Shown here: positions 3-15,245 of the stretch, one piece after another
Layout of the letters: every line of letters starts with the position of its first letter
Position numbering within the stretch: the stretch's first letter is position 1
From: an uncultured Mollicutes bacterium
Lineage (GTDB): Bacteria; Bacillota_I; Bacilli_A; ML615J-28; CAG-313
Length of the DNA stretch: 64,000 nt
Direction of reading: 5' to 3'
Assembly: GCA_900539265.1 (NCBI GenBank)
Contig: UQBM01000004.1
Location: 7,982-71,981 of the forward strand
Program-made: the position numbers and the translations under genes
Notes under the pieces: generated by a model
The model's input: the letters and a program-made list of their open reading frames with translations, nothing else
The model's database searches: none
Told to the model about the DNA's origin: nothing

Positions 3-1244
3 ATGTATATTAGTAGAGTGATTGAAAATACTATAAAAAATTTTTCAAATGAATTTTCTGTTATTGTTGTTACAGGTGCTAGACAAGTTGGTAAATCTAC
101 ATTGCTTCAAATGATTAAAGAAGATGATATGAATTATGTTACTTTAGATGATTTAGATGCAAGAACACTGGCAAAAGCAGATCCAAAATATTTTTTAGAA
201 CAATATGGATATCCTTTAATTATTGATGAAATACAATATGCTTCAAATTTATTACCATATATAAAAATAATAGTAGATGAATATCGTTTAAAATCTTTAA
301 AAAATAATACTAAACAAAAAGCTTTGTTCTGGTTAACTGGTTCTCAACAATTTAGATTAATGAAAGATGTAAGTGAATCATTAGCGGGTAGAATTGGGGT
401 TTTAAATTTATACTCATTATCTAATAGTGAAATAAATAAAAGCAATGTTGGTCTATTTAGTCCTAAATTAGATGTTCTTAAAGAAAAACAAAAAAATAGT
501 ATTGAAAAGAAAGGTAATGTATTTGAAAGAATATTTAATGGTGGTATGCCAACTGTTGTAAGTAATATAGCAGAAAGAAATAATTATTTTTCTTCTTATG
601 TTAATACATATATTGAACGAGATGTAAGAGAATTATTAAATGTTGGAAAAACATTAGAGTTTTATAATTTTATGCAATATATAGCTGTTAGAACTGCCCA
701 AGAATTAAATTATGCTAATATCGCAAAAGAAATAGGAGTAGATTCGAAAACAATTAAAAGTTGGATTAGTATATTAGAAGCATCTGGTATAATATATTTA
801 TTACAACCATATTATTCTAATGTTTCAAATAGAATCATTAAAGCTCCTAAATTATATTTTATGGATACTGGATTATGTAGTTATTTAGCAAAATATCCAA
901 ATCCTGAAACCTTAGAAGTTGGAGCATTATCTGGAGCAATTTTTGAAACATTTGTTGTGAGTGAAATTATCAAAAACTTTTCAAATTATGGAATAGATCC
1001 AAAAATTAATTTGTATTACTATCGTGACAAAGATCAAAAAGAAGTTGATTTAGTTTATGTAGAAGGAAATACTTTATATCCAATAGAAATAAAAAAAGGT
1101 ATAAGTCCAAATAATCCAGATAAAAACTTTAGTGTCTTAAAGAAATACAGTGATGATGTTAGACCAGGTATTGTTATTTGTTTAACGCAAAAACTACAAC
1201 CAATAAACAAAGATTGTTGGTTATGCCCAGTTAATTTAATATAA
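3..1244 (+). CDS. AAA+ ATPase of the AAA_14/DUF4143 (COG1373) family
   Basis: 413-aa ORF. Walker A-like motif GARQVGKST near the N-terminus and a DUF4143-like C-terminal region; typical size for this family. Confidence 0.7.
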   Translation: MYISRVIENTIKNFSNEFSVIVVTGARQVGKSTLLQMIKEDDMNYVTLDDLDARTLAKADPKYFLEQYGYPLIIDEIQYASNLLPYIKIIVDEYRLKSLKNNTKQKALFWLTGSQQFRLMKDVSESLAGRIGVLNLYSLSNSEINKSNVGLFSPKLDVLKEKQKNSIEKKGNVFERIFNGGMPTVVSNIAERNNYFSSYVNTYIERDVRELLNVGKTLEFYNFMQYIAVRTAQELNYANIAKEIGVDSKTIKSWISILEASGIIYLLQPYYSNVSNRIIKAPKLYFMDTGLCSYLAKYPNPETLEVGALSGAIFETFVVSEIIKNFSNYGIDPKINLYYYRDKDQKEVDLVYVEGNTLYPIEIKKGISPNNPDKNFSVLKKYSDDVRPGIVICLTQKLQPINKDCWLCPVNLI

Positions 1245-1367
1245 TATATTGTTTATTAAATGCTAAATTGAAGGTAGAATAGTTTAAAGATTTATTGTTG
1301 AATCATCAAATTATAATTGCAGGTAAATATAAAGTTTGATTGTAACCGGTCGATATTGAATGATAAA

Positions 1368-1397
1368 GTGTAGTAATCATGGTTACTGCACTTTTTT
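1368..1397 (+). terminator. Rho-independent terminator after the ATPase gene
   Basis: GTGTAGTAA-tcatgg-TTACTGCAC hairpin (9 bp with one G.U) followed by TTTTTT. Confidence 0.5.
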
Positions 1398-1857
1398 ATA
1401 TGTGTTTTTGTTATATATCTAACGTTGAATTTGTCCATTTAAATTTTGAAAAAAACAGGTCAATTTAATGAAAAAAGGGGCATATTGTACTGTATTTGTG
1501 TTAAAAAACGATATTTTGCACCATTAGTAGATGTCTATAAGTCTTCTGAAAAAGAAGGCTTTTTTCACTTTTTAGGCCTAAATTATCAAAAATCTTAAGA
1601 AAATATCCAAAAATGATGGTAAAAAGTGCTCAAAAAAAGACTTTTTGTCATACACAACCTAGTGCGATTATGCAAGGATTCGAACCTTTAGGTAAAAATG
1701 GCCTATTTTTGTGTAAATTGTTAAGTGACTTTTTATACTAACGATACCCTTTGAATAACGGGGTTCGAACCTATTGATTGAAAAATTACTACAAATAGTG
1801 TATAATGAAATATATAAAACATAGAAACGAGATAGTTTATGATAGAGTATAGAAAAG

Positions 1858-2325
1858 TTGATATTTCAGAAAAAGAACAAAATATATACAGTTCAAGAAG
1901 CAATAGACAGAAAAGAGTTTTTTGTTCCTTTTAGAGATGAAGATATTGATACAATGTTTGATAAAGACAAAGCTGTTACATATGGAGCATATGATAATGG
2001 TAAACTTATTGGAACAGCACAGTTTTATTTAGGTGATGAATTTGTTGATGATATAAAGAAAGTTATAGGTATTAGTGAAACAATTGCAGGAGAGTTTGGA
2101 GGAGTACTAATTTTACCTGAATATAGAGGTAAAGGTATCATGAAACAATTTTCAGCTATAATAATAGAAGAAGCAAGATTAAGAAATTATGATTATATAG
2201 TATCAGTAGCACATCCAGAAAATATAGCATCTAATAGATCTATATTATTTACTGGAGCAAAATTAATTAAAACTGATTATTTAGGTAAATATTATAGAAA
2301 TATGTATTTGTTAGATTTAAAATAA
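1858..2325 (+). CDS. GNAT family N-acetyltransferase (TTG start as in ORF track)
   Basis: 155 aa. Motif LPEYRGKGI matches the GNAT acetyl-CoA-binding motif A (R/Q-x-x-G-x-G/A). No in-frame ATG near the 5' end, so the start is uncertain. Confidence 0.55.
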   Translation: MIFQKKNKIYTVQEAIDRKEFFVPFRDEDIDTMFDKDKAVTYGAYDNGKLIGTAQFYLGDEFVDDIKKVIGISETIAGEFGGVLILPEYRGKGIMKQFSAIIIEEARLRNYDYIVSVAHPENIASNRSILFTGAKLIKTDYLGKYYRNMYLLDLK

Positions 2326-2653
2326 AATTATAGTTATAAAGAATAAAACCACTTAAAGGATTAATATTCCAATGGGTGGTTTTTATGCTTTGTGGACCGA
2401 TTGTAGAGCCTGTAGCAGTTCTTTAAAATTATATCGAACAACAAACTAGAGTAAAAAGGAAACGAGGGTGTTGGCAATTTTATAAGGTTTTAATCTATAT
2501 AAAATAATATATTAATTGTTAGACTCATATGTTTTGTTTATATGAAAATAGAAAGTCCAAAGTTTATATAATTTAAGTAATATAAAATTTTCTAAAATAT
2601 GACAAAAAACCCATGTTATTTTTACTTCGTGACAATTTTTTTCTCAAAAAGCT

Positions 2654-2681
2654 TGCAATTGTGTTTTTTATGTGTTATAAT
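2654..2681 (+). promoter_or_regulatory. Sigma-A-type promoter for the hsd operon (TTGCAA, 16 nt, TGtTATAAT extended -10)
   Basis: TTGCAA at 2654-2659 and TGtTATAAT at 2673-2681, 33 nt upstream of the first ATG (2714). CGTGACAA motifs flank it at 2628-2635 and 2687-2694. Confidence 0.4.
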
Positions 2682-2713
2682 TTACTCGTGACAAATACAT
2701 AGGAGGTATTGCT

Positions 2714-3292
2714 ATGGTAGTAAAAGATATAGCGATTGTTGGAAGTGGTCTTGTAGTTTCAAGAAAAAAGGCAATTCACACAAAAGATATCATCAAGTCA
2801 TACAAACAATTAAATCTTAGAGCAATCAATAAAAATGGATATATAGAAGAACAGGAATTAGAAATATTAAATGTAAAAGAAATTATAGATGATTATTATC
2901 TTACACATGAAGGAGATATAATTGTTAGATTAACTGATCCTTTCACTGCTATATATATTAGTAAAGATATGGAAAATATTGTAATCAGCTCAAACTTCTG
3001 TGTAATAAGATGTTCAGAAAATTACTGCCCTGATTTTTTATCTTATTATATAAATAGTGATTCTGCAAGAAAATCATTATTAAGTAATCTGCAAGGATCT
3101 ATAATGAAGAATATAAATATGTCTGCAATTGGAGAAATGGAAATCCCGAATATCCCTTTAAAGAAACAGCATATAATTGGAAATTTGTTTAAAGCACAAA
3201 CACAAAAAATTATTATATTAAATAAAATACAAGAAAAGGAAGATAAATTACAAAAAGCTATTTTAGTAAAAATAGAAAATATGGAGGATTAA
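2714..3292 (+). CDS. hsdS: Half-size Type I R-M specificity subunit (single target-recognition domain HsdS)
   Basis: 192 aa. C-terminal IPNIPLKKQHIIGNLFKAQTQKII resembles the conserved HsdS central/coiled-coil motif (iPlPpl.EQ..Iv). Only one TRD is present. GGAGG RBS; sits directly upstream of hsdR. Confidence 0.6.
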   Translation: MVVKDIAIVGSGLVVSRKKAIHTKDIIKSYKQLNLRAINKNGYIEEQELEILNVKEIIDDYYLTHEGDIIVRLTDPFTAIYISKDMENIVISSNFCVIRCSENYCPDFLSYYINSDSARKSLLSNLQGSIMKNINMSAIGEMEIPNIPLKKQHIIGNLFKAQTQKIIILNKIQEKEDKLQKAILVKIENMED

Positions 3293-3294
3293 TA

Positions 3295-6200
3295 ATGAAT
3301 AGTAGTAAAATGTTAGAAAAAAATATATCCCAATATCCAGCACTAGAATTATTTCAAAAATTAGGTTATAAATATATTTCTCCAGAAGATTGTATTGTAC
3401 AAAGAAAAGGCACATATGGGTGTATTCTTCAAGATATTCTTAAAGAACAATTAAAAAAATTAAATAGTTATGAATATAATGGGAAAGTTTGTAAGTTTTC
3501 AAATTTTAATATTGAAAAAGCAGTTTCAGATTTAGATGTACCAATTCAAGAAGGTTTAATTGTTGCTAGTGAAAAGGTATATAATCTTCTTACTATGGGA
3601 AGAAGTTATGTAGAACAAGTAGATGATAGAAAAGTATCATTTGATTTAAACTATATTGATTGGCACAATTTTGAAAATAATGTATTTCATGTAACTCAAG
3701 AATTTGCTGTAGATAGTCACACAGGCGAACATAATGCAAGAGTTGATATTGTTTTATTTGTGAATGGGATCCCTTTTGCAGCTATCGAGTGTAAATCTGG
3801 TGTAGAATCAGTAGATCAAGCAGTGGAACAAAATATTAGAAATCAAACAGATTTTTATATACCTCAATTATTTAAATATGTTTCACTTGTAGTAGCATGT
3901 AATAAAAATGAAGTCAAATATGGAACAACTAGAACAAAAAAGAAATTTTATTCAGTTTGGAAATTTGAAAATGATGAACCAGTTGAAATTGAAGAAAAGA
4001 TTAATAACTTAAAATTAGGAAGATTGGCGACATATCAAGATAAAATATTCACAGCTATGATGACTCCTGAAAGATTGATTGAAATAGCAAGATATTTTGT
4101 TTTATTCGATGCAAACGTTAAAAAGGTGTGTAGATATCAACAATATTATGCTGTAAAAAATATCATTTCTACAATACAAAAATATGATTCAAATAATAAT
4201 AGACAAAGTGGTATAATTTGGCATACACAGGGTAGTGGTAAGTCACTAACTATGGTTATGATAGCAAATTATATATTAACTAATATTAATCCAGGTAAAA
4301 GTAAAGTTGTAATTGTTACAGATAGAAAAGATTTAGATAAACAAATTGCAAGAACGTTTAGCAATACTAAAATTAAACCTGCAAGAGCTATTAGCGGTAG
4401 AAATTTGGTTGAATTAATTTCAGAAGGAAAAGCAGACGTTATAACATCTATAATTAATAAATTTAATACAGCAGAAAAGTTCAATACGAGAGTTGATGAA
4501 AAAGATATTTTTATTTTAGTAGATGAATCACATCGTAGTAATTATGGTGAGTTAGCTGTTAAAATGAGAAGAGTATTCCCTAATGCTTGTTATTTAGGAT
4601 TTACAGGTACACCACTAATGAAAAACGATAAAACTGCTATGAAATTTGGTGGACACTATATACACAAATATACAATTAAAAATGGTGTTGATGATAAAGC
4701 TATTGTTCCATTAGTTTATGAAGGAAGATTTGTGGAACAAACAGTTGATTCTACAAATATAGATTTATGGTTTAAGAAAACATGTAGCAAACTTAACGAT
4801 AAACAAAAAGATGAACTAAGCAGAAAATGGAGTTCAATCCAAAAACTTAATAGTACTTATGCTAGAATTGAAAGAATAGCCCTTGATATAGATGAGCATT
4901 TTACAAATAATATTAAGGCAACTGGATTTAAAGCTATTTTAGCAACAAATTCAAAATTAGATGCAGTTAGATATTATAATACATTTAAACATTTTAGTGA
5001 ATTAGAAGTAGCAGTTTGTATTTCATCACCAGATATGAGAGAAGGATATGAAGATTTAGATGAAAGCAATCTTCCTGAAGTACAAAAATTTTGGAAAGAA
5101 ATGATGGAAATATATAATGATGCCGATGATTATGAAGAAAGTATCAGAAATAAGTTTGTAGATGGAGACCTAGATATATTAATTGTATGTTCAAAATTAC
5201 TTACAGGATTTGATGCACCAATATGTCAAGTTTTATATATTGATAAGCAATTGAAAGAGCATGGTTTATTACAGGCGATTGCAAGAACTAATCGACTATA
5301 CGAAGGAAAAGATTATGGATTGATTGTTGATTATAGAGGGTTGCTTCCACAGTTAAATGACGCAATGAATGTTTATTCTGGGGACAATGGTTTAGATAAG
5401 TTTGATAAAAAAGATTTAGAAGGGCTTATTACAGATGTATTAACTTCGGTCGCTGGATTAAGACAAGCGTATACAAATCTCGAAAATAATTTTATTTCTA
5501 TTGAAAATAAAAATGATGAAGAAGAATATGAAGTATATCTAGAACAACATGAAGATATTAGAAATAAATTTTATAATGATTTATGTGAATTCGGAAAAAA
5601 ATTATCATTGGTGTTAGGGAGTGAAAATGCCTATACAGCTATTGTAGATAGTGATCCTAAAGAGATAAAACTATATAAAGATAAATTTATCTTTTATTCA
5701 AAATTAAGAGTAATGATTAAGAAAAGATGTGCCGAAACAATAGATAATAAAGACTATGAAAATCAAATGAGAAATTTATTAGATAAACATTTATCAGTTG
5801 TCGGTTTAAAAATTCTTACAAAACCATTAGATATTATGAATAAAGGAGAATTAGAAAAAGAAATTGAGGATTTAGGAAGTAAAGCGTCAAAAGCAGATGC
5901 TATAAGATATAACTTAAGTAAAAATATTTCAGTTAATTATGACACTAATCCTGCTTATTATGATAGTTTTTCAAAAAGAATTAAAGATGTACTGGAACAA
6001 TACAAAGAAAAAGTAATAAGTGATGCAGAATATTTACAAGCTATGAGTAAAATATTGGATGATTTTAGAACAAATAAGAGTGGAATATCTTATCCAAAAT
6101 CAATTCAACAAAGTGTTCATGCTCAAGCGTTTTATGGTGTAATTCTTCCTATAATTAATGAAAACGAAGAATATGATATTAATTTAATTGGAGAAATAGC

Positions 6201-6396
6201 AATTAAAATTGCTGAAATAATTCAAGAACATACAAAAGTTGATTGGAGTAATAACGTTGATATACATAATAATATTGCTCAAGATATTGATGATATGTTT
6301 TATGAATATGAAAAACAAGGGGTCATAAAGTTATCTTTTGATAAGATTGATAAAGTAACAGAAAATGTTACAACAGTTGCATTAAAGAGGTTTTAA
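3295..6396 (+). CDS. hsdR: Type I restriction enzyme R subunit (HsdR)
   Basis: 1033 aa. SF2 helicase motifs: GSGKSLTM (Walker A), DESHRS (DEAH-like motif II), GFTGTPL (motif III). Its position in the hsdR-hsdM-hsdS cluster supports the call. Confidence 0.9.
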   Translation: MNSSKMLEKNISQYPALELFQKLGYKYISPEDCIVQRKGTYGCILQDILKEQLKKLNSYEYNGKVCKFSNFNIEKAVSDLDVPIQEGLIVASEKVYNLLTMGRSYVEQVDDRKVSFDLNYIDWHNFENNVFHVTQEFAVDSHTGEHNARVDIVLFVNGIPFAAIECKSGVESVDQAVEQNIRNQTDFYIPQLFKYVSLVVACNKNEVKYGTTRTKKKFYSVWKFENDEPVEIEEKINNLKLGRLATYQDKIFTAMMTPERLIEIARYFVLFDANVKKVCRYQQYYAVKNIISTIQKYDSNNNRQSGIIWHTQGSGKSLTMVMIANYILTNINPGKSKVVIVTDRKDLDKQIARTFSNTKIKPARAISGRNLVELISEGKADVITSIINKFNTAEKFNTRVDEKDIFILVDESHRSNYGELAVKMRRVFPNACYLGFTGTPLMKNDKTAMKFGGHYIHKYTIKNGVDDKAIVPLVYEGRFVEQTVDSTNIDLWFKKTCSKLNDKQKDELSRKWSSIQKLNSTYARIERIALDIDEHFTNNIKATGFKAILATNSKLDAVRYYNTFKHFSELEVAVCISSPDMREGYEDLDESNLPEVQKFWKEMMEIYNDADDYEESIRNKFVDGDLDILIVCSKLLTGFDAPICQVLYIDKQLKEHGLLQAIARTNRLYEGKDYGLIVDYRGLLPQLNDAMNVYSGDNGLDKFDKKDLEGLITDVLTSVAGLRQAYTNLENNFISIENKNDEEEYEVYLEQHEDIRNKFYNDLCEFGKKLSLVLGSENAYTAIVDSDPKEIKLYKDKFIFYSKLRVMIKKRCAETIDNKDYENQMRNLLDKHLSVVGLKILTKPLDIMNKGELEKEIEDLGSKASKADAIRYNLSKNISVNYDTNPAYYDSFSKRIKDVLEQYKEKVISDAEYLQAMSKILDDFRTNKSGISYPKSIQQSVHAQAFYGVILPIINENEEYDINLIGEIAIKIAEIIQEHTKVDWSNNVDIHNNIAQDIDDMFYEYEKQGVIKLSFDKIDKVTENVTTVALKRF

Positions 6397-6398
6397 AA

Positions 6399-7121
6399 AT
6401 GAAGTATGAATTTTCTTATAACGGAAAAACAATAGCTTATGAAATAATTTATAAGAAAGTAAAAAATATCAATATAAGAGTTAAACCAAGTGGAGAAGTT
6501 GTTGTTTCTTGTAATGAATCAATTGATAATAAAACTATTGAGTTAGAAATGATTAAACGAGCAAACTGGTTATTGGATACTATTGATAAATATAAAACAA
6601 ATTTAATTGAATTCGTTGATTCAAATCTTAGTTTGGTTGATGGAGAAGCTTTCTTAATATTAGGAAAAGTATTAAGAATTAAAAATATTGAATCAAATCA
6701 GTTTAAAATTGACTATGATAATAACTATTTATACATTTATAGACCAAATCAAAGAGGTATAAAGATGAAATTCAATCAATGGTATTTAAATTTTGTTACT
6801 TCCCAATTTAATGATATGGTAAATAAAGCATATAAAAAGTTTGAAAAATATGGTATTGTAAAACCAGAAGTTATTTATAAAAATATGAAAACTAGATGGG
6901 GAACTTGCAATATTGAAAAAGCTTTAATAACATTAAATATTCAGTTAATTAAAGTAGACCCATTTTTAACTGAGTATGTAATATGTCATGAATTGACACA
7001 TTTAAAATATAGAAATCATAATAAAGATTTTTATACATTCTTAACAGCAATGATTCCAGATTGGAAACAAAGAGAACAAATTTTAAACAATATTTTTATA
7101 AATAATTTAGGAGGTATTTAA
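6399..7121 (+). CDS. YgjP-like (DUF45/M48-type) zinc metallohydrolase embedded in the R-M operon
   Basis: 240 aa. WGTCN...ICHELTHLKYRNHNKDFY matches the WGSC and HExxH motifs of the YgjP/SprT-like family. Translationally coupled between hsdR and hsdM. Confidence 0.75.
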   Translation: MKYEFSYNGKTIAYEIIYKKVKNINIRVKPSGEVVVSCNESIDNKTIELEMIKRANWLLDTIDKYKTNLIEFVDSNLSLVDGEAFLILGKVLRIKNIESNQFKIDYDNNYLYIYRPNQRGIKMKFNQWYLNFVTSQFNDMVNKAYKKFEKYGIVKPEVIYKNMKTRWGTCNIEKALITLNIQLIKVDPFLTEYVICHELTHLKYRNHNKDFYTFLTAMIPDWKQREQILNNIFINNLGGI

Positions 7122-7122
7122 A

Positions 7123-8634
7123 ATGACAACTAAAGAAGATATTCAAAAAGTCTTATGGAACGCTGCAGGAAGTTTTAGAGGAAAAATTGATAGTGGTAAG
7201 TATAAAGATTATATTTTATCAATGCTTTTCGTAAAATATTTAAGTGATGCGATTAAAGAAACGAAAGAAGAACTTATTAAAAAATATAATGGTGATGAAG
7301 AAAGAATTCAAAGAGCTTTACAAAGAGGAAGATTCTTTGTTCCTGATGAAGCAACATTTGATTACTTATATGATAATAAAAAGGCAACAGATATTGGAAG
7401 TAAAATTAATATTGCTTTAAAGGCAATTGAAAATGCAAATGGCGGTAAATTAAGAAATATCTTTGGCCAAATTGATTTTAATTCTCAAGAACTTGGAGAT
7501 GGAAGAGAGAAGGTTGCATTATTAAGTAACTTCCTTGAAGATTTCAGTTCTATTGATTTAAGACCAAGCCAATTAGAAGGTGTTGATGAAATTGGTAATG
7601 CTTATATGTATATGCTTGCAGTTTTTGCTAGTGATGCAGGTAAAAAAGGTGGCGAATTTTATACACCTGAACAAGTATCAGAAATCCTTGCGAGAGTCGT
7701 AGAACCTAAAGAAAATGATCGTATTTATGATGGTGCTTGTGGTTCTGGTTCTTTATTAATTAAAGCATTCAATCAAGTGTCTAATAGAAAAGCACAAATT
7801 TATGGACAAGAGAGAAACTTCCAAACTTGGGGTTTATGTAGAATGAATATGTTTATTCATAACATCGATGATGCTATTATTTATCAAGGTGATACTATTT
7901 CAAACCCTCAAAATATTGAAGATGGAAAGTTAATGCAATTTCAATGTATAGTTGCAAATCCACCATTCTCATTAGATAAATGGGCAAATGGTTATGCAGC
8001 AGATAGTAATGACAAAGATTTCAAAATGTCAAAAGAACTAGACCCATATAAACGTTTTGATTGGGGTGTTCCACCAAAAAGTAAAGGTGACTATGCTTTC
8101 ATACTTCATATGTTGCATTGTCTTGATGGTAATAATGGTAGAATGGCAATAATTATGCCTCATGGTGTTTTATTCAGAGGAGCAAGTGAAGGCGAAATTA
8201 GAAAGAAACTTATTGATCTTAACTTATTAGATGCTGTAATTGGATTGCCTGCTAACCTTTTCTACGGAACAAGTATTCCTGCTTGTATTCTTGTATTTAA
8301 GAAAAATAGAGCAAATAAAGATGTTGTTTTTATTGATGCATCAAAGGACTTTGAACAAGGTAAAAATCAAAACAAATTAAGACCTGAAGATATTGATAAG
8401 ATTGTATCAACATATAAAGCAAGACAAGAAGTTGAAAAATATTGTCACATAGCAAAAATAGATGAAATTAAGGAAAATGATTATAATTTAAATATTCCTC
8501 GTTATGTAGACACATTTGAAGAAGAAGAACAAATTGACATTCATGCAGTAATGGCAGAAATTAAAGAATTAGAAAAACAAAGAACAGAACTTGATAAAGA
8601 AATAGAGGGTTATCTTAAGGAATTAGGATTATAA
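7123..8634 (+). CDS. hsdM: Type I R-M N6-adenine DNA methyltransferase (HsdM)
   Basis: 503 aa. NPPF catalytic motif (VANPPFS) and an AdoMet-binding-like DGACGSGS motif; HsdM N-terminal domain. Confidence 0.9.
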   Translation: MTTKEDIQKVLWNAAGSFRGKIDSGKYKDYILSMLFVKYLSDAIKETKEELIKKYNGDEERIQRALQRGRFFVPDEATFDYLYDNKKATDIGSKINIALKAIENANGGKLRNIFGQIDFNSQELGDGREKVALLSNFLEDFSSIDLRPSQLEGVDEIGNAYMYMLAVFASDAGKKGGEFYTPEQVSEILARVVEPKENDRIYDGACGSGSLLIKAFNQVSNRKAQIYGQERNFQTWGLCRMNMFIHNIDDAIIYQGDTISNPQNIEDGKLMQFQCIVANPPFSLDKWANGYAADSNDKDFKMSKELDPYKRFDWGVPPKSKGDYAFILHMLHCLDGNNGRMAIIMPHGVLFRGASEGEIRKKLIDLNLLDAVIGLPANLFYGTSIPACILVFKKNRANKDVVFIDASKDFEQGKNQNKLRPEDIDKIVSTYKARQEVEKYCHIAKIDEIKENDYNLNIPRYVDTFEEEEQIDIHAVMAEIKELEKQRTELDKEIEGYLKELGL

Positions 8635-8648
8635 AGAGGTCATGACTA

Positions 8649-9806
8649 ATGAGTGAAAAAACAATCAATAAAGTCCCTAATGTTCCCAATTTAAGATTCT
8701 TCAATGATGACAACACTTGGTCAAATTCATCTCTTGAAAAAAAGTGTAAATTTGTTGGTGGTGGGACACCATCAACATTGAATCAAGATTATTGGAATGG
8801 AGATATTGCATGGATATCATCAGCTGATTTACTTGAAGAAAATGTTCATAAATACAATGTAAGTCGATTCATAACAAAAGAGGCCATAATGAATAGTGCC
8901 ACAAAAATATGTCCTATTAATACGATAATGATAGTGTCGAGAGTTGGTGTGGGAAAAATAGCAATTAGTAATTCTGAAATATGTACTAGTCAAGATTTTA
9001 CAAATCTCACAGAATATCAATTTGATAAAAACTTTTTAGTTTATTCACTTAAAAACACTATAGAAAAACTTAAAAATTCATCTCAAGGAACATCAATAAA
9101 AGGAATTACATCAAAAGAGATAAAGCAAATAAATATCTTCTATCCAGAAATAATCGAACAATGTAAAATAGGATTGTTTTTCAAAAAAATAGATGAACGA
9201 ATAGAGTTTCAAAGCAAAATCATTAACAAACTTGAATCCTTAATATGTACTTTAAGGTCTACAATTTTTAATAGTTATAACTGGGAATGGAATAGATTAG
9301 ATACTTATATTAAATCTGGTATTATTACATTAAAGCGTGGAAACGTTATTCCTAAACATGATGAGGACAGTGAATTTAAATTTCCAGTATATTCGTCATC
9401 AATACATAATAATGGTTTAATGGGTTATAACAATTCATACATGTTTGATAAAGAATTAATTACATGGTCTGTTGATGGTGGTGGAAACTTCTTTTATAGA
9501 CCTAAGCATAAATTTAATGTTACAAATGTCTGTGGAATTATGGAAATAACAGACAATTCATATAATTATAGATTTTTATCAGAAATTCTTTTAGCACAAC
9601 ATTCAAGACTTATATTCGATTATCAAACAAAAGCACACCCTAGTGTTATTGAGAAATTATATAAAATACCCAATGTGGATATAAAAATTCAAGAAAAAAT
9701 AGCTTATATATTTGAGCTTTATTACACAAAGTTACAAAAAGAAAAAGATATACTTTCACTTTATAAAAAGCAAAAAGCATATCTTCTCCAAAATATGTTT
9801 ATATAA
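8649..9806 (+). CDS. hsdS: Type I R-M specificity subunit (HsdS), expressed copy with two TRDs
   Basis: 385 aa. N-terminal KVPNVPNLRF conserved motif; central IDERIEFQSKIINKLESL and C-terminal conserved repeats typical of HsdS. Confidence 0.85.
   Translation: MSEKTINKVPNVPNLRFFNDDNTWSNSSLEKKCKFVGGGTPSTLNQDYWNGDIAWISSADLLEENVHKYNVSRFITKEAIMNSATKICPINTIMIVSRVGVGKIAISNSEICTSQDFTNLTEYQFDKNFLVYSLKNTIEKLKNSSQGTSIKGITSKEIKQINIFYPEIIEQCKIGLFFKKIDERIEFQSKIINKLESLICTLRSTIFNSYNWEWNRLDTYIKSGIITLKRGNVIPKHDEDSEFKFPVYSSSIHNNGLMGYNNSYMFDKELITWSVDGGGNFFYRPKHKFNVTNVCGIMEITDNSYNYRFLSEILLAQHSRLIFDYQTKAHPSVIEKLYKIPNVDIKIQEKIAYIFELYYTKLQKEKDILSLYKKQKAYLLQNMFI
8674..8698. repeat. Inverted repeat IR1, left copy (5' end of expressed hsdS)
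   Basis: TCCCtAATGTTCCCAATTTAAGATT. It is the reverse complement of 10925-10949, with 20 contiguous identical nt plus 4 more after one mismatch, and it encodes the shared PNVPNLRF segment. Confidence 0.8.
9210..9226. repeat. Inverted repeat IR2, left copy (central conserved region of expressed hsdS)
   Basis: CAAAGCAAAATCATTAA. A 17/17 reverse-complement match to 10358-10374, lying between TRD1 and TRD2. Confidence 0.6.
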
Positions 9807-9813
9807 ACATATT
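9792..9813. repeat. Perfect 22-bp palindrome at the tail-to-tail junction of the two hsdS genes
   Basis: AATATGTTTATATAAACATATT is its own reverse complement. It contains the stop codons of both convergent hsdS ORFs, and both end in ...NMFI. Confidence 0.85.
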
Positions 9814-11019
9814 AGCTAATAAATATTTCTTTTGTAAAAGATAGTCATTAAGAATTTGTTCTTCAATGGCTATTTTTTTGTCAAGTGATGTTACGATTAA
9901 AGTAATTTTAGAAATTAATTCCTTATTAGGGATCTTAACTTTAATACCAGTAAGAGTAGATAAGACTATATAAGGCATTGCTCCTACATTTTTTTCACGA
10001 TGTAGTTTTTTAGGAAGTTCAATTTCTAAAGCGAATTTTATATACAATGGATTTTTTATAAAATTTTGCAAAACATATGTTCTCTGATATGCATCAAACT
10101 TACCATTAAAATATTTAATTAATCCAACTTCACCATTTCCAGAAATTATTAACGATTCTCCTTCAAATGAGTATTTGTCTATATAATAATCTTCTTTAGC
10201 ACAAGTGAAGAATTTATATTTACCGTTAGGATTCATAGCATTTGCATCTAATTTTCCAGTTGTAATACTACATAGTTGATTTAAGGATATGTAATCAAAA
10301 TCATTTAAATCATTATAAATAGTATGTAGAATTCTATTTCTATAAGATTTATATTCCTTAATGATTTTGCTTTGGGTTAAAATTCTTTCATCAATCATTG
10401 ATAAGAATTTTCCAATTTTATTTTGTTCTTCTATTGTTGGAGTATAAAGTTTTAAGTTCTTTAGCTCTGGAATTCCAATTCTTTGACGTGTTGATCCGGC
10501 AGTTTTTGAGGCTATTATTTTTCTAATATTTTTTGTGTTAATTTGTTCTCTCATAAAAAGTTTATTACATTTTTTAATATCTAAATTAACTCGTATAGCA
10601 TCGGAACCTAACACATATCTTTTATAAAAATCATGAGCAATACAGCAACGACCTGCAGGCATCATTTTAGCAATAATTAAATCACCTGGATATGCGTTGT
10701 TTGCAATTAAACTATCAGCTTTTTTTACACTTGTGAATATTAATCTTTCAGTAAAATTTAAATAATCTTCTGTTATATTACTTAATTGAATGATAGGAAC
10801 ACCATCCAGCGTATAATCATTTGTCTTTAAATCTGACCCAAAAGGTCCGCCAGCAAAAGATTTTTTTTCATTTGTCGTAAGTAATTCTAGGCTTGTTGTT
10901 GTCCACTCATATATAAATTCAGGAAATCTTAAATTGGGAACATTGGGGATTTTATTCCTTATAATATTTAAAAATTTATTAAATTGACTTATGTATAGGA
11001 GGTAATTAATATGACTCAA
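9799..11019 (-). CDS. hsdS: Inverted silent hsdS cassette, convergent with and overlapping the expressed hsdS
   Basis: 406-aa ORF on the minus strand. It has the IPNVPNLRFP motif, the central IDERILTQSKII motif and the same C-terminal NMFI ending as the expressed hsdS. Its first about 23 codons (upstream of the inverted repeat) are probably not native, and it has no obvious promoter of its own. Confidence 0.75.
   Translation of the reverse strand: MSHINYLLYISQFNKFLNIIRNKIPNVPNLRFPEFIYEWTTTSLELLTTNEKKSFAGGPFGSDLKTNDYTLDGVPIIQLSNITEDYLNFTERLIFTSVKKADSLIANNAYPGDLIIAKMMPAGRCCIAHDFYKRYVLGSDAIRVNLDIKKCNKLFMREQINTKNIRKIIASKTAGSTRQRIGIPELKNLKLYTPTIEEQNKIGKFLSMIDERILTQSKIIKEYKSYRNRILHTIYNDLNDFDYISLNQLCSITTGKLDANAMNPNGKYKFFTCAKEDYYIDKYSFEGESLIISGNGEVGLIKYFNGKFDAYQRTYVLQNFIKNPLYIKFALEIELPKKLHREKNVGAMPYIVLSTLTGIKVKIPNKELISKITLIVTSLDKKIAIEEQILNDYLLQKKYLLANMFI
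10358..10374. repeat. Inverted repeat IR2, right copy (central region of silent hsdS)
   Basis: TTAATGATTTTGCTTTG, the reverse complement of 9210-9226. Confidence 0.6.
10925..10949. repeat. Inverted repeat IR1, right copy (5' end of silent hsdS)
   Basis: AATCTTAAATTGGGAACATTgGGGA, the reverse complement of 8674-8698. Confidence 0.8.
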
Positions 11020-11934
11020 ATTAAATTAAGTCAGATAATTGACTTATGGAAGAAAGACAAAAAGCAATATGTTAAAAAATCAACATATTCTGCATATGTG
11101 CTTTTAGTTAAAAATCATTTATTACCATATTTTGGTGATAAATACGAAGTTGAGGAGTCAGATGTTCAAAAGTTTGTATTTGAAAAATTGGAACAAGGAC
11201 TTAGTCAAAAAACTATTATGGACATTTTGATTGTATTAAAGATGATACTTAAGTTTGGAGTAAAACATAGGTATTTGTCTTGTCGTGAAATTGAAATTAA
11301 ATTCCCCACACAAAGAGAAAATGAGGGACTTGAGGTATTAAGCCGTTCAAATCAAAGAAAAATAATGGATTATATTGAAAAAAATTTTACTTTTAAAAAC
11401 TTAGGCATTTATATTTGTTTGAGTACAGGATTAAGAATAGGAGAATTATGTGCGTTAACATGGGATGATATAGATGAAGATAATGGTGTTATTTTAGTTA
11501 GGAAAACTATTCAAAGAATATATGTTATTGATGATGTTAAAAAAAGAACTGAATTAATTATAGATACACCAAAGACTAAAAATTCGATCAGAGATATTCC
11601 TATGACATCGAATTTAATTAAGATAATTAAACCTATTAAGAAAATTGTAAATAATGAATATTATGTTTTGACTAATGATATTAAACCAACAGAACCTAGA
11701 ACATATAGGAATTATTATAAAAGGTTTATGAAAAAATTTGATATTCCGGATTTAAAGTTTCATGGATTAAGACATAGTTTTGCAACTAGGTGTATTGAAG
11801 GAAAATGTGATTATAAAACTGTTAGCGTTATTTTAGGTCATTCAAATATAAGCACAACATTAAATTTATATGTCCACCCAAATCTTGAACAAAAGAAAAA
11901 ATGTATTAATCAGATGAATAGGTCATTAAGATAA
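11011..11934 (+). CDS. Tyrosine site-specific recombinase (phage-integrase family), putative hsdS invertase
   Basis: 307 aa. C-terminal catalytic signature HGLRHSFAT...LGHSNISTTLNLYVH (R-H-R-Y family). Its start overlaps the 5' end of the inverted hsdS by 9 nt. Confidence 0.85.
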   Translation: MTQIKLSQIIDLWKKDKKQYVKKSTYSAYVLLVKNHLLPYFGDKYEVEESDVQKFVFEKLEQGLSQKTIMDILIVLKMILKFGVKHRYLSCREIEIKFPTQRENEGLEVLSRSNQRKIMDYIEKNFTFKNLGIYICLSTGLRIGELCALTWDDIDEDNGVILVRKTIQRIYVIDDVKKRTELIIDTPKTKNSIRDIPMTSNLIKIIKPIKKIVNNEYYVLTNDIKPTEPRTYRNYYKRFMKKFDIPDLKFHGLRHSFATRCIEGKCDYKTVSVILGHSNISTTLNLYVHPNLEQKKKCINQMNRSLR

Positions 11935-11998: not shown

Positions 11999-12023
11999 AA
12001 ATATGTGATTGGAGTTGATTAAT

Positions 12024-15000
12024 ATGAAAGATATGTTGTCATTATCAGAATTATTTAATAAGAAGTTATTTAGAATACCAGACTATCAAAGAGGTTATGC
12101 TTGGGAAAAACAACAAGTAGAAGATTTTTGGAATGATTTAATGCTGCTTCATAAAGATAAAGAACATTATACAGGTATGTTATCATTACAAGAAATTAGA
12201 CCTAAATTAGATGATGTTAATTATTATGATTGTATTGATTTAAGAGATACTCATAAAATTTTTCATATTGTTGATGGACAACAAAGATTAACAACTTCAA
12301 TGCTATTAATTAATCAAATTATTAAAATTGATTATAGTAAATATGAACCAAGTATTTTTAATAATGAATTTATAAGTAGCATTAAAGGTAAATATATTTG
12401 TAATAACAAATGTTATGTGTTTGGCTATGAAGTAGATAATCCTAGTTTTGTTTATCTTAAAAATATATTTGGCGAATCAGATCCTACACTAATTAAGGAA
12501 TCAAGATATACAAGAAACTTATCAGTTGCAAGTCATATCTTTGAAGAGAACTTAAAGAAGCTAATAAAAGATAAAGGTGTAAAGGCCGTTGAAGATTTAT
12601 TCTATAAGTTAACAGAAAAGTTACAATTTAATATTCATTATATTAAACATAATTTTGATGTTCACGTTGCTTTTGAAACAATGAATAATCGTGGTAAGAA
12701 ATTGTCCAACTTAGAGATATTAAAGAATAGATTAATATATCTTTCAACTTTATATCCAGATTCAAAAAAAATGAAAGCAAAGAAATTAAATCTACAAAAA
12801 GAAATAAATGATGCTTGGAAAGAAATATATTATAATTTAGGTAAAGATTTAAATAATGAACTAGACGATGATATGTTCTTAAAAGCTCATTGGGCATTAT
12901 ATTTTAAGTTTAGTAAGACTGATTCAGATACATATGTTAATGAATTGTTAAATAAATATTTTATTCCTGCAGCTGTTAATGATTTTATAAGGGAATATAA
13001 TGATAGTGAACTTGATGAAGATGATATAGATTGGAGTGATGATGCACTAACGATTGAAGAAATATCATCATATGTAAAAAGTTTAAGAGAAACATCAAAA
13101 TATTATTATGATACTTTTGTTCCTAATCCTAAACTATCAGAAGAAGAACAAAACTATATTCGTAAACTTAATAGAATAGGTATTGGATATAGTGCATTAC
13201 GAAATTTAGTTGTTGCATCATATTTGGTAAGTAAAGATAAAGATGCAAGTTTTGCTGAAAAACGTATTGAACTATTTAAAGCAATTGAAAGATTTATTTT
13301 CTTATGTTTTAGAACAGCAGGTTTTCAATCATCATATAAAAGTGGAGTATATTATAGATATGCAGGCCAAATGTTACAACCAGAAGGTAACTTATCTATT
13401 GATGCAGTAATTGAAGATATTAATAAAACAGTTGATGATGATATGCCACAAATCATTCAATCGTTTATAACACAATCAAATGGATGGTTTAGTGAAAATA
13501 ATCATTATGGATTCTATGCATGGACCGGATTAAAATACTTTTTATTTGAATATGAAGAATCACTTTTAAATGCATCAACAGGAACAAAGATATCAGGAGA
13601 TAATTACTTTAAGAAAAGTGAAAAAGATAAAGTATCAATTGAACATATTTTTCCACAAACACCTTCAAAATATTATTGGGCTAACCTTTATAGATCATAT
13701 GATAAAGATAATGAAGTTTGGAAACTAGCAGGAACAATAGGTAACTTATTACCTCTTTCAAGTTCTATTAATTCAAGTTTGCAAAATGATTCATTTGAAG
13801 CTAAGGTTAATGGAAGAAAAGGTGCTGTTGGATATGAAATGAATTCATATTCAGCTATTGAAGTATCAAAACACCATAAATGGTTAGAAGAAGATTATCC
13901 ATCATTTAATAAATATTATTTTAGAAATATTGATGAAACTGAATTTGACTGGACACCAGAAAAGATAGAGAGAAGAGGAATACATTTACTTAAATTCTTA
14001 TCTAAAAGATATAATTGTCCTTTAACAGATGAAGATATAATTAGTTTATTGCATATTGATTTTATTCATGATGAAATTAGACAAGCATTACCACCATTAG
14101 AAAAGTATGATGATGATGTCTTTGAAATCACTTCACAAAAAGGATACAATGTTGATAGAGTAAAATACTGGACTGCCTTTGAAGAATATTGTGAAGGTTT
14201 AGGATACGGATTTATGACAACATATGATGATCCTTCTGAAAGAAACTATTTTGACTTGAGATATCAAGAAGATTTTAACTATGTATTTAAAGTAAATCGT
14301 AATGGAATTGAATTCTGTTTATATTGCTATACTCCAACAGTTTACTCAAAAATGGCTTCAATTAAAAATGAGCTAGAAGAAGCTTTAGGATGTGAATTTG
14401 TTTGGGATTTAAGCAAGGCTAATTCACTTGCTAAAAGAATTTCATTATTTAAGGATATTGATTATTCTAAATCAAATAACTGGGATGAATGTTTCGAATG
14501 GTATATTGAATGTTTTAATAGTATAAAGGACATATTGTTATTACATTTTCCTGTTAAAAAACAAAGCGGTACAATGAGTGTTGATGAACATTTATTAACT
14601 AAACCAGAAAAAATGAGTAAAATCTATAAAGAGATTTATGGAAAAGTAAAAGACAAAATTAGTGATTTTTATGAAGTTGCTACAAATCCATACATTGCGT
14701 TTAGAACAAACAAGAATGATAACTTTGCTGAAATATGGATTCAACGTTCACAAATTAAAGTGATGTTACGTTCAAACGAAGTAGGATATCCTGTAGGTTC
14801 TAAAGTTGGAGATTCATATAGATGGACACACAACTGGAGAATTGCTTTAGTCAGTGAGAAACAAATAGACGAAGTTGTAGCATGTATTTTAATCAGTTAT
14901 TATTCAATTGATAATAATGTAGAAATGATGAATAAAATTAAGGACAATATAAATCATATAACTGATTTTGATTTACAACAGTCAAATACATTTGAAAGAG

Positions 15001-15245
15001 GGGAAGTATTTTCTTTTGTGAAATGTGGAATACCAGCTGGAGCAGAACTAGAATACATTTATGATCCTTCTATAAAATGTACAGTTTATGATGAAAGAAA
15101 GATTAATTATAATGGTGAAATAATGTATATGACTACATTAGTAAAACAAATAACAAAAATACCATCACCAAATGGACCATCATATTTTAGTTATAATGGA
15201 AAAAATCTTTCTGAATATTATATTGAATATCAATCAAAGAAATAA
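12024..15245 (+). CDS. GmrSD-like Type IV (modification-dependent) restriction protein: DUF262 + DUF1524 with a long C-terminal extension
   Basis: 1073 aa from the ATG at 12024 (the ORF track's TTG at 12009 lacks an RBS; GGAG lies 9 nt upstream of the ATG). The N-terminus has IPDYQRGYAW and DGQQRLTT (DUF262/ParB-like NTPase hallmarks). Mid-protein SIEHIFPQTP matches the DUF1524 His-Me finger motif. About 450 aa of additional C-terminal sequence has unknown function. Confidence 0.8.
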   Translation: MKDMLSLSELFNKKLFRIPDYQRGYAWEKQQVEDFWNDLMLLHKDKEHYTGMLSLQEIRPKLDDVNYYDCIDLRDTHKIFHIVDGQQRLTTSMLLINQIIKIDYSKYEPSIFNNEFISSIKGKYICNNKCYVFGYEVDNPSFVYLKNIFGESDPTLIKESRYTRNLSVASHIFEENLKKLIKDKGVKAVEDLFYKLTEKLQFNIHYIKHNFDVHVAFETMNNRGKKLSNLEILKNRLIYLSTLYPDSKKMKAKKLNLQKEINDAWKEIYYNLGKDLNNELDDDMFLKAHWALYFKFSKTDSDTYVNELLNKYFIPAAVNDFIREYNDSELDEDDIDWSDDALTIEEISSYVKSLRETSKYYYDTFVPNPKLSEEEQNYIRKLNRIGIGYSALRNLVVASYLVSKDKDASFAEKRIELFKAIERFIFLCFRTAGFQSSYKSGVYYRYAGQMLQPEGNLSIDAVIEDINKTVDDDMPQIIQSFITQSNGWFSENNHYGFYAWTGLKYFLFEYEESLLNASTGTKISGDNYFKKSEKDKVSIEHIFPQTPSKYYWANLYRSYDKDNEVWKLAGTIGNLLPLSSSINSSLQNDSFEAKVNGRKGAVGYEMNSYSAIEVSKHHKWLEEDYPSFNKYYFRNIDETEFDWTPEKIERRGIHLLKFLSKRYNCPLTDEDIISLLHIDFIHDEIRQALPPLEKYDDDVFEITSQKGYNVDRVKYWTAFEEYCEGLGYGFMTTYDDPSERNYFDLRYQEDFNYVFKVNRNGIEFCLYCYTPTVYSKMASIKNELEEALGCEFVWDLSKANSLAKRISLFKDIDYSKSNNWDECFEWYIECFNSIKDILLLHFPVKKQSGTMSVDEHLLTKPEKMSKIYKEIYGKVKDKISDFYEVATNPYIAFRTNKNDNFAEIWIQRSQIKVMLRSNEVGYPVGSKVGDSYRWTHNWRIALVSEKQIDEVVACILISYYSIDNNVEMMNKIKDNINHITDFDLQQSNTFERGEVFSFVKCGIPAGAELEYIYDPSIKCTVYDERKINYNGEIMYMTTLVKQITKIPSPNGPSYFSYNGKNLSEYYIEYQSKK

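Follow-up and report, generated by a model that had tools for sequence, protein, structure and literature searches.

Organisation of the locus

The window analysed here is a stretch of 64,000 nucleotides (nt) of contig UQBM01000004.1 (assembly GCA_900539265.1; positions 7,982 to 71,981), from an uncultured Mollicutes bacterium. It has a G+C content of 28.8%, and the standard bacterial code leaves its long open reading frames (ORFs) intact. Our subject is a Type I restriction–modification (R-M) locus in which the specificity gene, hsdS, occurs twice in opposite orientations beside a recombinase gene, and the DNA inversions that would reassort the target recognition domains (TRDs) of the two copies. 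The locus is a compact row of plus-strand genes spanning 2714–11934, interrupted by a single minus-strand gene, the second hsdS (hereafter hsdS'), which lies between the last plus-strand hsdS and the recombinase gene. The full set of Type I genes is present, each with a Pfam match. The restriction subunit, hsdR (3295–6396, plus strand, 1033 aa), matches HSDR_N, SWI2_SNF2, T1R_D3-like, and T1RH-like_C, and the N6-adenine methyltransferase subunit, hsdM (7123–8634, plus strand, 503 aa), matches N6_Mtase (E 9.6e-108) and HsdM_N.

The two hsdS copies are arranged tail-to-tail and carry different TRDs. The first (8649–9806, plus strand, 385 aa, two Methylase_S stretches) has its own ATG, starts 15 nt past hsdM, and encodes TRD1a followed by TRD2a, which we call allele A. 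The second, hsdS' (9799–10956, minus strand), encodes TRD1b and TRD2b. Its reading frame enters from NKIPNVPNLRF with neither an ATG nor a ribosome-binding site of its own, and, as read from the sequence, the sole in-frame start upstream is a TTG at 11019, within the start region of the recombinase gene. Hence, one copy occupies an expression site and the other is start-less. Scans for transcription signals were uninformative in this AT-rich DNA: we counted 74 promoter-like sites against 74.4 expected, and found 0 terminators. The two HsdS frames (385 aa each) are 27% identical overall and share only three short stretches: NK(V/I)PNVPNLRF at the N-terminus, IDERI..QSKII in the centre, and YLL.NMFI* at the C-terminus.

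The row ends with a gene for a tyrosine site-specific recombinase, a putative invertase of 307 aa (11011–11934, plus strand; Pfam Phage_integrase and Phage_int_SAM_3). The protein consists of an N-terminal SAM-like domain and a Phage_integrase fold, and alignment to the Tn1549 integrase (PDB 6emy) shows a complete catalytic set (R142, K188, H251, R254, H277, and Y287).

Two pairs of inverted repeats within the hsdS genes

The hsdS genes contain two nested pairs of inverted repeats (IRs), one in the N-terminal conserved region of both genes (IR1) and the other in the central conserved region (IR2). The IR1 arms (8667–8698, plus strand, and 10925–10956, minus strand) match at 30 of 32 nt (94%) and include an exact 20-nt core, AATGTTCCCAATTTAAGATT, at 8679–8698 and 10925–10944; the left arm encodes NVPNLRF (aa 11–17). 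With a 26-nt probe and up to 3 mismatches, IR1 has only two sites in the 64 kb, against 0.00 expected from shuffled sequences. The recombinase gene starts 54 nt past the extended right arm of IR1, and 66 nt past the exact core, and thus lies outside the invertible segment. The IR2 arms (9210–9226, plus strand, and 10358–10374, minus strand) are identical at 17/17 nt, CAAAGCAAAATCATTAA, and can be extended to 29 nt at 83% identity (to 9238 on the left and from 10346 on the right). They encode QSKII (aa 188–193 in the left arm), and these are homologous codons in both hsdS genes. The length of IR2 says little by itself: an exact inverted match of at least 17 nt arose in 20 of 300 first-order Markov shuffles (about 7%) of this 2.5-kb AT-rich region.

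An earlier sequence-only reading of this DNA had proposed both pairs, the first as 24 of 25 matching nt between 8674–8698 and 10925–10949, and the second by eye. The former reappears as part of our 32-nt arms, and exact computation returns the latter in full. The dot-plot of the locus against its reverse complement that it proposed as a check recovers IR1, IR2, and a palindrome at the hsdS stop codons; an exhaustive search of 8600–11100 for exact inverted matches longer than 12 nt gives these same three elements (the palindrome at 9792–9813) and no other. The proposed geometry was also right: IR1 falls past the fixed MSEKTINK start and before TRD1, and IR2 falls between TRD1 and TRD2.

The repeat arms lie inside the hsdS coding sequence and bound the segments that encode the TRDs. 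Four modules are so delimited: TRD1a (8699–9209, plus strand), TRD2a with the C-terminal conserved helix (9227–9798, plus strand), TRD2b (9807–10357, minus strand), and TRD1b (10375–10924, minus strand). Codon usage in the arms is unusual. Both IR2 arms use AGC and ATC, which account for 5% of the Ser codons and 9% of the Ile codons in the window, and both IR1 arms keep CCC, which accounts for 3.5% of the Pro codons. The adjacent IDERI motif, conserved in the protein, differs between the two copies at 3 of 5 synonymous sites. Rare codons shared by the arms, next to synonymous divergence, point to a constraint on IR1 and IR2 at the level of the DNA, beyond the conservation of the protein.

All four arrangements occur in public assemblies

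If both repeats can invert, the two TRD1 and two TRD2 modules should combine into four alleles, as the sequence-only reading had predicted. We built them in silico and each is a single intact ORF: A (T1a+T2a, 385 aa), B (T1a+T2b, 378 aa), C (T1b+T2b, 391 aa), and D (T1b+T2a, 398 aa). An exact-sequence search of a collection of 15 billion proteins found every one of them residue for residue, end to end, on 43, 8, 22, and 11 public contigs, respectively. We then fetched contigs selected by the alleles and the recombinase; they are from gut metagenomes in ENA and Logan, plus one NCBI metagenome-assembled genome (MAG).

These contigs carry the whole block in each of the four states, with the modules present as exact DNA substrings. 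Arrangement A (T1a+ T2a+ T2b- T1b-) is found in locus L001. Arrangement B (T1a+ T2b+ T2a- T1b-), in L013–L015, is inverted at IR2, which is the predicted exchange of TRD2 only. Arrangement C (T1b+ T2b+ T2a- T1a-), in L003, is inverted at IR1, which is the predicted swap of the whole cassette. Arrangement D (T1b+ T2a+ T2b- T1a-), in L017 and L018, is inverted at both. The TRD1a module is present on one strand or the other in L001, L003, and L013–L018, TRD2a is present in all four arrangements, and TRD1b and TRD2b were likewise matched as exact DNA modules. The shared flanks, about 3.7–4.0 kb upstream and 2.8 kb downstream (6.5–6.9 kb in total), show 0–2 substitutions among the arrangement loci: A, C, and D have 0 differences and B has 0–2. 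L015 was excepted from this count because an indel shifts its register. All four arrangements therefore exist on otherwise identical DNA.

Two further groups of loci show the same behaviour. A second, unrelated set of TRDs at the same locus (L004 and L006–L012) is found in all four arrangements, with modules that are 100% identical. A third lineage (L002 and L016), which has a different TRD1 (T1c) in the silent slot, is found in both IR2 states. The contigs were assembled with several assemblers and, judging from the record names, with k-mers of 99–141. Such k-mers far exceed the 17–20 nt of the repeats, which excludes that an assembler created the junctions by joining sequences across a repeat. 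The ends of two Logan contigs (L019 and L020) were considered as a sign of within-sample mixture and were left unused, as they do not break at the repeat boundaries.

The crossovers map inside the repeats

We used the differences between the loci to delimit the exchange points. In 13/13 loci first examined, the hsdM-side flank 5' of the IR1 core (…AAAGTCCCT) never moves, and the recombinase-side IR1 flank (…AAAATCCCC) is likewise fixed. In the same 13 loci, all the sequence 3' of the core moves together with TRD1. An A/G difference at position 15 of the IR1 core, seen in the second TRD set, follows TRD1, which places the IR1 exchange within AATGTTCCCAATTT (8679–8692 / 10931–10944, 14 nt). The sole exception is L008, with G at this position in both arms, which could be the trace of gene conversion, of heteroduplex correction in the course of inversion, or of an exchange located further 3'. 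The flanks of IR2 diverge right at both edges of the 17-mer. Between L002 and L016, a G/A difference at IR2 position 5 remains with TRD1, and this places the IR2 exchange within CAAAATCATTAA (9215–9226 / 10358–10369, 12 nt). Hence, the crossovers fall inside the repeats, within at most 14 nt at IR1 and at most 12 nt at IR2. Breakpoints outside the repeats, which would have spoken against the prediction, were not seen: the sequence switches partner precisely in the repeat cores.

The recombinase and the two sites are found together in other phyla

A scan of species-representative genomes identified 26 loci with related recombinases, of which 22 are near full-length, at 60–86% identity, and 4 are partial C-terminal matches. 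Their hosts are Anaeroplasmataceae and Firmicutes MAGs, Christensenellaceae, and many Bacteroidota (Flavobacterium, Dysgonomonas, Pedobacter, Prevotella). The nearest of these recombinases (best 86%) are from the Anaeroplasmataceae and Firmicutes MAGs. Wherever the contig includes enough upstream DNA, an IR1-type arm (GTTCCnAATTTGAGATT) lies about 100 nt before the recombinase start, and an IR2-type arm (CAAA[G/A]CAAAAT[C/A]ATTGA) lies about 550–700 nt before it. The inverted partner arms lie another 1.1–1.3 kb or so (IR2) and 2.2–2.4 kb or so (IR1) beyond these. Among the related loci examined, all those with enough upstream sequence keep IR2 as an inverted pair. The closest species-level relatives (L022 and L024, with recombinases 86% and 78% identical to that of the window) have three arms each of IR1 and IR2, at positions of about 190–4900, and hence three hsdS copies; this predicts more than four alleles.

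The ends of these contigs are also informative. Three loci from species representatives (L021, L032, and L037) have contigs that end exactly at an IR1 arm (positions 1–5), and in five others (L023, L035, L036, L038, and L040) the contig stops at most a few hundred nt from the IR1 arm on the recombinase side. Several contigs besides the first three stop inside the hsdS block. Breaks at or near IR1 are expected of assemblers facing populations of mixed orientation, and their recurrence suggests that assemblies routinely break at these invertons.

A probable four-way switch and its alternatives

Taken together, these results make it very probable that the locus is a four-way invertible hsdS specificity switch, in which the adjacent recombinase inverts the DNA at IR1 or IR2. 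In the most likely mechanism, the enzyme would pair either the two IR1 arms or the two IR2 arms and invert the DNA between them. Inversion at IR1 (2226 bp between the extended arms) would exchange both TRDs, and inversion at IR2 (1131 bp between the arms) would exchange the second TRD only. The expressed hsdS would be the last gene of an operon made of a half-size hsdS, hsdR, a ygjP-like gene, hsdM, and hsdS, while the second hsdS would be promoterless and start-less. The promoter, the ATG, and the first 10 codons would thus stay fixed, and TRD1 and TRD2 would reassort behind them, giving four in-frame alleles (T1a+T2a, T1a+T2b, T1b+T2b, and T1b+T2a). Each allele would direct the HsdM2-HsdS methyltransferase and the HsdR-containing restriction enzyme to a different bipartite target, and the four HsdS proteins are accordingly predicted to have four distinct methylation specificities, with bipartite m6A motifs that would have half-sites in common by pairs (the TRD1a half in A and B, the TRD2a half in A and D). 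Catalysis by the adjacent recombinase is putative and is suggested by its sequence and position. The identical flanks and the contig breaks at IR1 are indirect signs that switching may be reversible and frequent within a clone.

Some points weigh against this reading. We take hsdS' to be silent from its lack of an ATG and of a ribosome-binding site. Each of the four arrangements comes from a different sample. The link between the enzyme and the sites is drawn here from sequence comparison, and some hsdS inversions at S. pneumoniae spnIII are reported to persist without the recombinase of the locus (PMC6620402).

The last of these points bears on the alternative that survives best, although we consider it quite improbable: the inversions would be real, but made by RecA-dependent homologous recombination or by a recombinase encoded elsewhere, and the neighbouring integrase-family gene would be unrelated to them. 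There is a precedent for a distant enzyme in M. pulmonis, whose recombinase gene lies apart from the hsd loci (PMC7672463). Against this alternative, the exact identity in the window covers merely 20 and 17 nt, and the crossover windows are smaller still. Efficient RecA-dependent exchange usually needs about 25 bp or more, so inversion by RecA is disfavoured. In addition, the active site of the local recombinase is intact, its gene is co-inherited with both repeat cores across phyla with an IR1 arm held at nearly constant distance from its start, and the repeats keep rare codons, as expected of sites recognised by a protein.

The sampling of the arrangements bears on a different alternative, which we regard as highly improbable: the four arrangements would be rare, historically fixed differences between strains, and not the states of an ongoing phase-variable switch. 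That every arrangement is from a different sample speaks for it. But flanks that are identical or nearly so, together with identical modules, imply that inversion is fast relative to point mutation. Further, two independent TRD sets show all four states and the third lineage shows two IR2 states, related species have contigs that stop right at an IR1 arm, and the homologous locus of B. fragilis switches in clonal cultures (PMC7672463; PMC7641763).

Finally, the repeats might have no role in recombination and simply be coding motifs that HsdS conserves, or matches due to chance in AT-rich DNA, given that both coincide with conserved regions of the protein and that a match as long as IR2 is not rare in the shuffles. 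The existence of recombinant molecules joined precisely at both repeats refutes this, and the codon identity between arms, rare codons included, which exceeds what the protein requires, also speaks against it; its probability is negligible. Since matches of this length are not rare in the shuffles, we do not rest the case for IR2 on its length: IR2 is real because it occupies homologous codons, keeps rare codons, is conserved across loci, and has recombinant junctions inside it.

Relation to known phase-variable systems

The four-way switch proposed here has its closest characterised relative in Bfa9343I of B. fragilis NCTC 9343. Huang et al. (2020, Nucleic Acids Research) named the class of epigenetic invertons and divided their invertases into six clades (PMC7672463). 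Bfa9343I is a phase-variable Type I R-M locus (BF1839-BF1843) with a clade-3 invertase, BfiA (PMC7672463; PMC7641763). Its inversions at IR2 (…ACCCAAAACAAAATAAT) and IR3 (AATTTCCCAACTTTGCGATTTCC…) were verified by polymerase chain reaction and sequencing (PMC7672463), and different methylation motifs were measured (PMC7672463; PMC7641763). IR1 of the window (silent arm AATGTTCCCAATTTAAGATTTCC) is homologous to IR3 of B. fragilis (AATTTCCCAACTTTGCGATTTCCAGAGTTC…), and IR2 of the window (silent arm ACCCAAAGCAAAATCATT) to IR2 of B. fragilis. The homologous repeats occupy the same places in hsdS, and the loci of Bacteroidota and Bacillota bridge the two systems. In both, the recombinase gene follows the invertible hsdS block on its downstream side and is not part of it.

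A 30-nt piece of the B. fragilis IR3 retrieved five metagenome contigs, two of which hold both arms (L049 and L050) and are IR2-inverted relative to each other. Their recombinase is 69% identical to that of the window over 303 aa and starts 77 nt past the right arm of IR3; we equate it with BfiA (BF1843) by its position and by the gene order given in PMC7672463. The systems also differ. The HsdM of these two contigs is merely 46–56% identical to that of the window. Bfa9343I is built from four hsdS genes or half-genes, with six half-modules, four repeat pairs, and a total of eight alleles, whereas the window has a simpler version, in which two full hsdS genes with two repeat pairs give four alleles. 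The operon of the window adds a half-size hsdS and a ygjP-like gene, and its host is from a different phylum, with a G+C content of 28.8% in the window. Overall, our data support the locus being a BfiA-type inverting Type I R-M system, i.e., an epigenetic inverton, with a four-phase switch.

The four-way switch drawn by Atack et al. (2020, mSystems, Fig. 1; PMC7394358) follows an identical logic, with repeats before and between the TRDs and alleles A–D. Its examples are Streptococcus suis SSU1271-1274 and a predicted locus of Actinobacillus pleuropneumoniae (PMC7394358), and the likeness of the window to these loci is one of layout. The screen in that study demanded an exact repeat of at least 20 bp (PMC7394358): the 20-nt core of IR1 barely passes this filter, and the 17-nt IR2 would be missed. 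Repeats as short as 15 bp are functional in the pneumococcal locus (PMC7394358).

The clade 1 system of S. pneumoniae, SpnD39III / ivr (cod) with the recombinase PsrA (CreX), is likewise a Type I hsdS shufflon that works through inverted repeats within hsdS and a tyrosine recombinase encoded in the locus. SpnD39III comprises three hsdS genes and three repeat pairs, of 15, 85, and 333 bp, which yield six alleles (Manso et al. 2014, PMC4190663; PMC7672463), and its recombinase gene is inside the inverton. The locus of the window, with its recombinase outside, two hsdS genes, and two repeat pairs, is set apart from it by layout. Homology between invertase clades is only marginal (Huang et al., PMC7672463). 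In Mycoplasma pulmonis, the clade 6 recombinase HvsR also makes chimeric hsdS genes in hsd1 and hsd2, by site-specific inversion at short sites that lie close to the 5' end of hsdS and midway along the gene (PMC7672463), and the host is likewise a low-GC bacterium of the Mollicutes type. However, HvsR is encoded away from its targets and also inverts the vsa surface-lipoprotein genes (PMC7672463), whereas the recombinase of the window adjoins the locus and belongs to the BfiA-like group.

A possible common site and the exchange of cassettes

The two repeats may themselves be related. The best alignment between the consensus sequences of IR1 (34 arms) and IR2 (32 arms) is obtained when IR2 is reverse-complemented, with only 1.4% of column shuffles giving an alignment as good. 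The pattern common to IR1 and reverse-complemented IR2 is roughly AATG-n-T-yyy-r-n-TTTG-r-G, and both mapped crossover windows land on the same part of this alignment. Ben-Assa et al. describe the repeats of B. fragilis as dissimilar to one another (PMC7641763). A covariation of IR1 and IR2 across species (AATG vs AATT) was considered and rejected: it fits B. fragilis and Dysgonomonas and fails in most Bacteroidota loci.

The hsdS block also varies in content. Across 19 loci whose flanks differ by 0–3 substitutions, we found at least 6 TRD1 and at least 6 TRD2 modules (sets 1, 1c, 2, and 3), and the replacements of modules, e.g., T1c in L002 and L016, have both of their limits within the cores of IR1 and IR2. 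So many modules on near-identical flanks, replaced between the cores, would be explained if the sites were cassette boundaries. The repeats may thus also mark the limits of cassette exchange between strains. The broader proposal, that IR1 and IR2 are opposite orientations of one site that also bounds the replacement of TRDs between strains and even phyla, is speculative and in our view rather unlikely.

Other features of the locus and its surroundings

The first gene of the operon, directly before hsdR and outside the invertible segment, is a half-size hsdS (2714–3292, plus strand, 192 aa) with a single TRD and a conserved helix (Pfam Methylase_S, E 4.6e-06; PADLOC Specificity_I, E 1.6e-15). 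It is also found in L001 and L002. Probe searches with both repeats found no copy of IR1 or IR2 in it. We rejected it as a third partner of the shufflon for this reason, and also because it is in direct orientation, so that an exchange would delete hsdR and hsdM. A homodimer of the half-size HsdS could give the same HsdM and HsdR a constant palindromic specificity beside the variable one. Between hsdR and hsdM is a gene for a YgjP-like zinc metallopeptidase (6399–7121, plus strand; Pfam YgjP-like, E 2.4e-42), which is kept in all the related loci of this species. Its product might act on HsdR, for instance to relieve self-restriction once the specificity has switched.

The third inverted element of the block is a perfect palindrome of 22 nt (9792–9813), at the 8-nt overlap of the two hsdS stop codons, where both genes end in NMFI*. 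The overlap is common to 13/13 of the loci of this species first examined. As a third recombination site the palindrome was rejected, since it has no spacer and its recombination would change nothing; as a terminator it was rejected because its RNA hairpin is weak (-8.3 kcal/mol, z -2.2). We treat it as a by-product of the two overlapping ends.

Directly downstream of the recombinase gene is a GmrSD-type Type IV restriction gene (12009–15245, plus strand, 1078 aa, DUF262/DUF1524); it and the Type I system make up a small defence island. Its product carries extra C-terminal DUF4268 and DUF5655 domains. A gene for a DUF4143 AAA ATPase (3–1244) lies upstream of the Type I operon. An Rfam scan of the window gave no matches.

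Implications

The established picture of phase-variable Type I systems is unchanged by this locus, which adds a cleanly resolved four-phase hsdS inverton from an uncultured low-GC bacterium of the human gut, probably related to Mollicutes. It indicates that 17 nt can suffice for a functional hsdS recombination site, and that screens with a minimum of 20 bp of exact repeat would miss IR2. The exact look-up in public assemblies of recombinant proteins built in silico is a cheap validation of predicted shufflons that does not require reads. At the scale of the family, the BfiA-type recombinase and the cores of its two sites travel together across Bacteroidota and Bacillota. For the host, the switch means that its populations should form subpopulations with up to four methylomes and four specificities of phage restriction.

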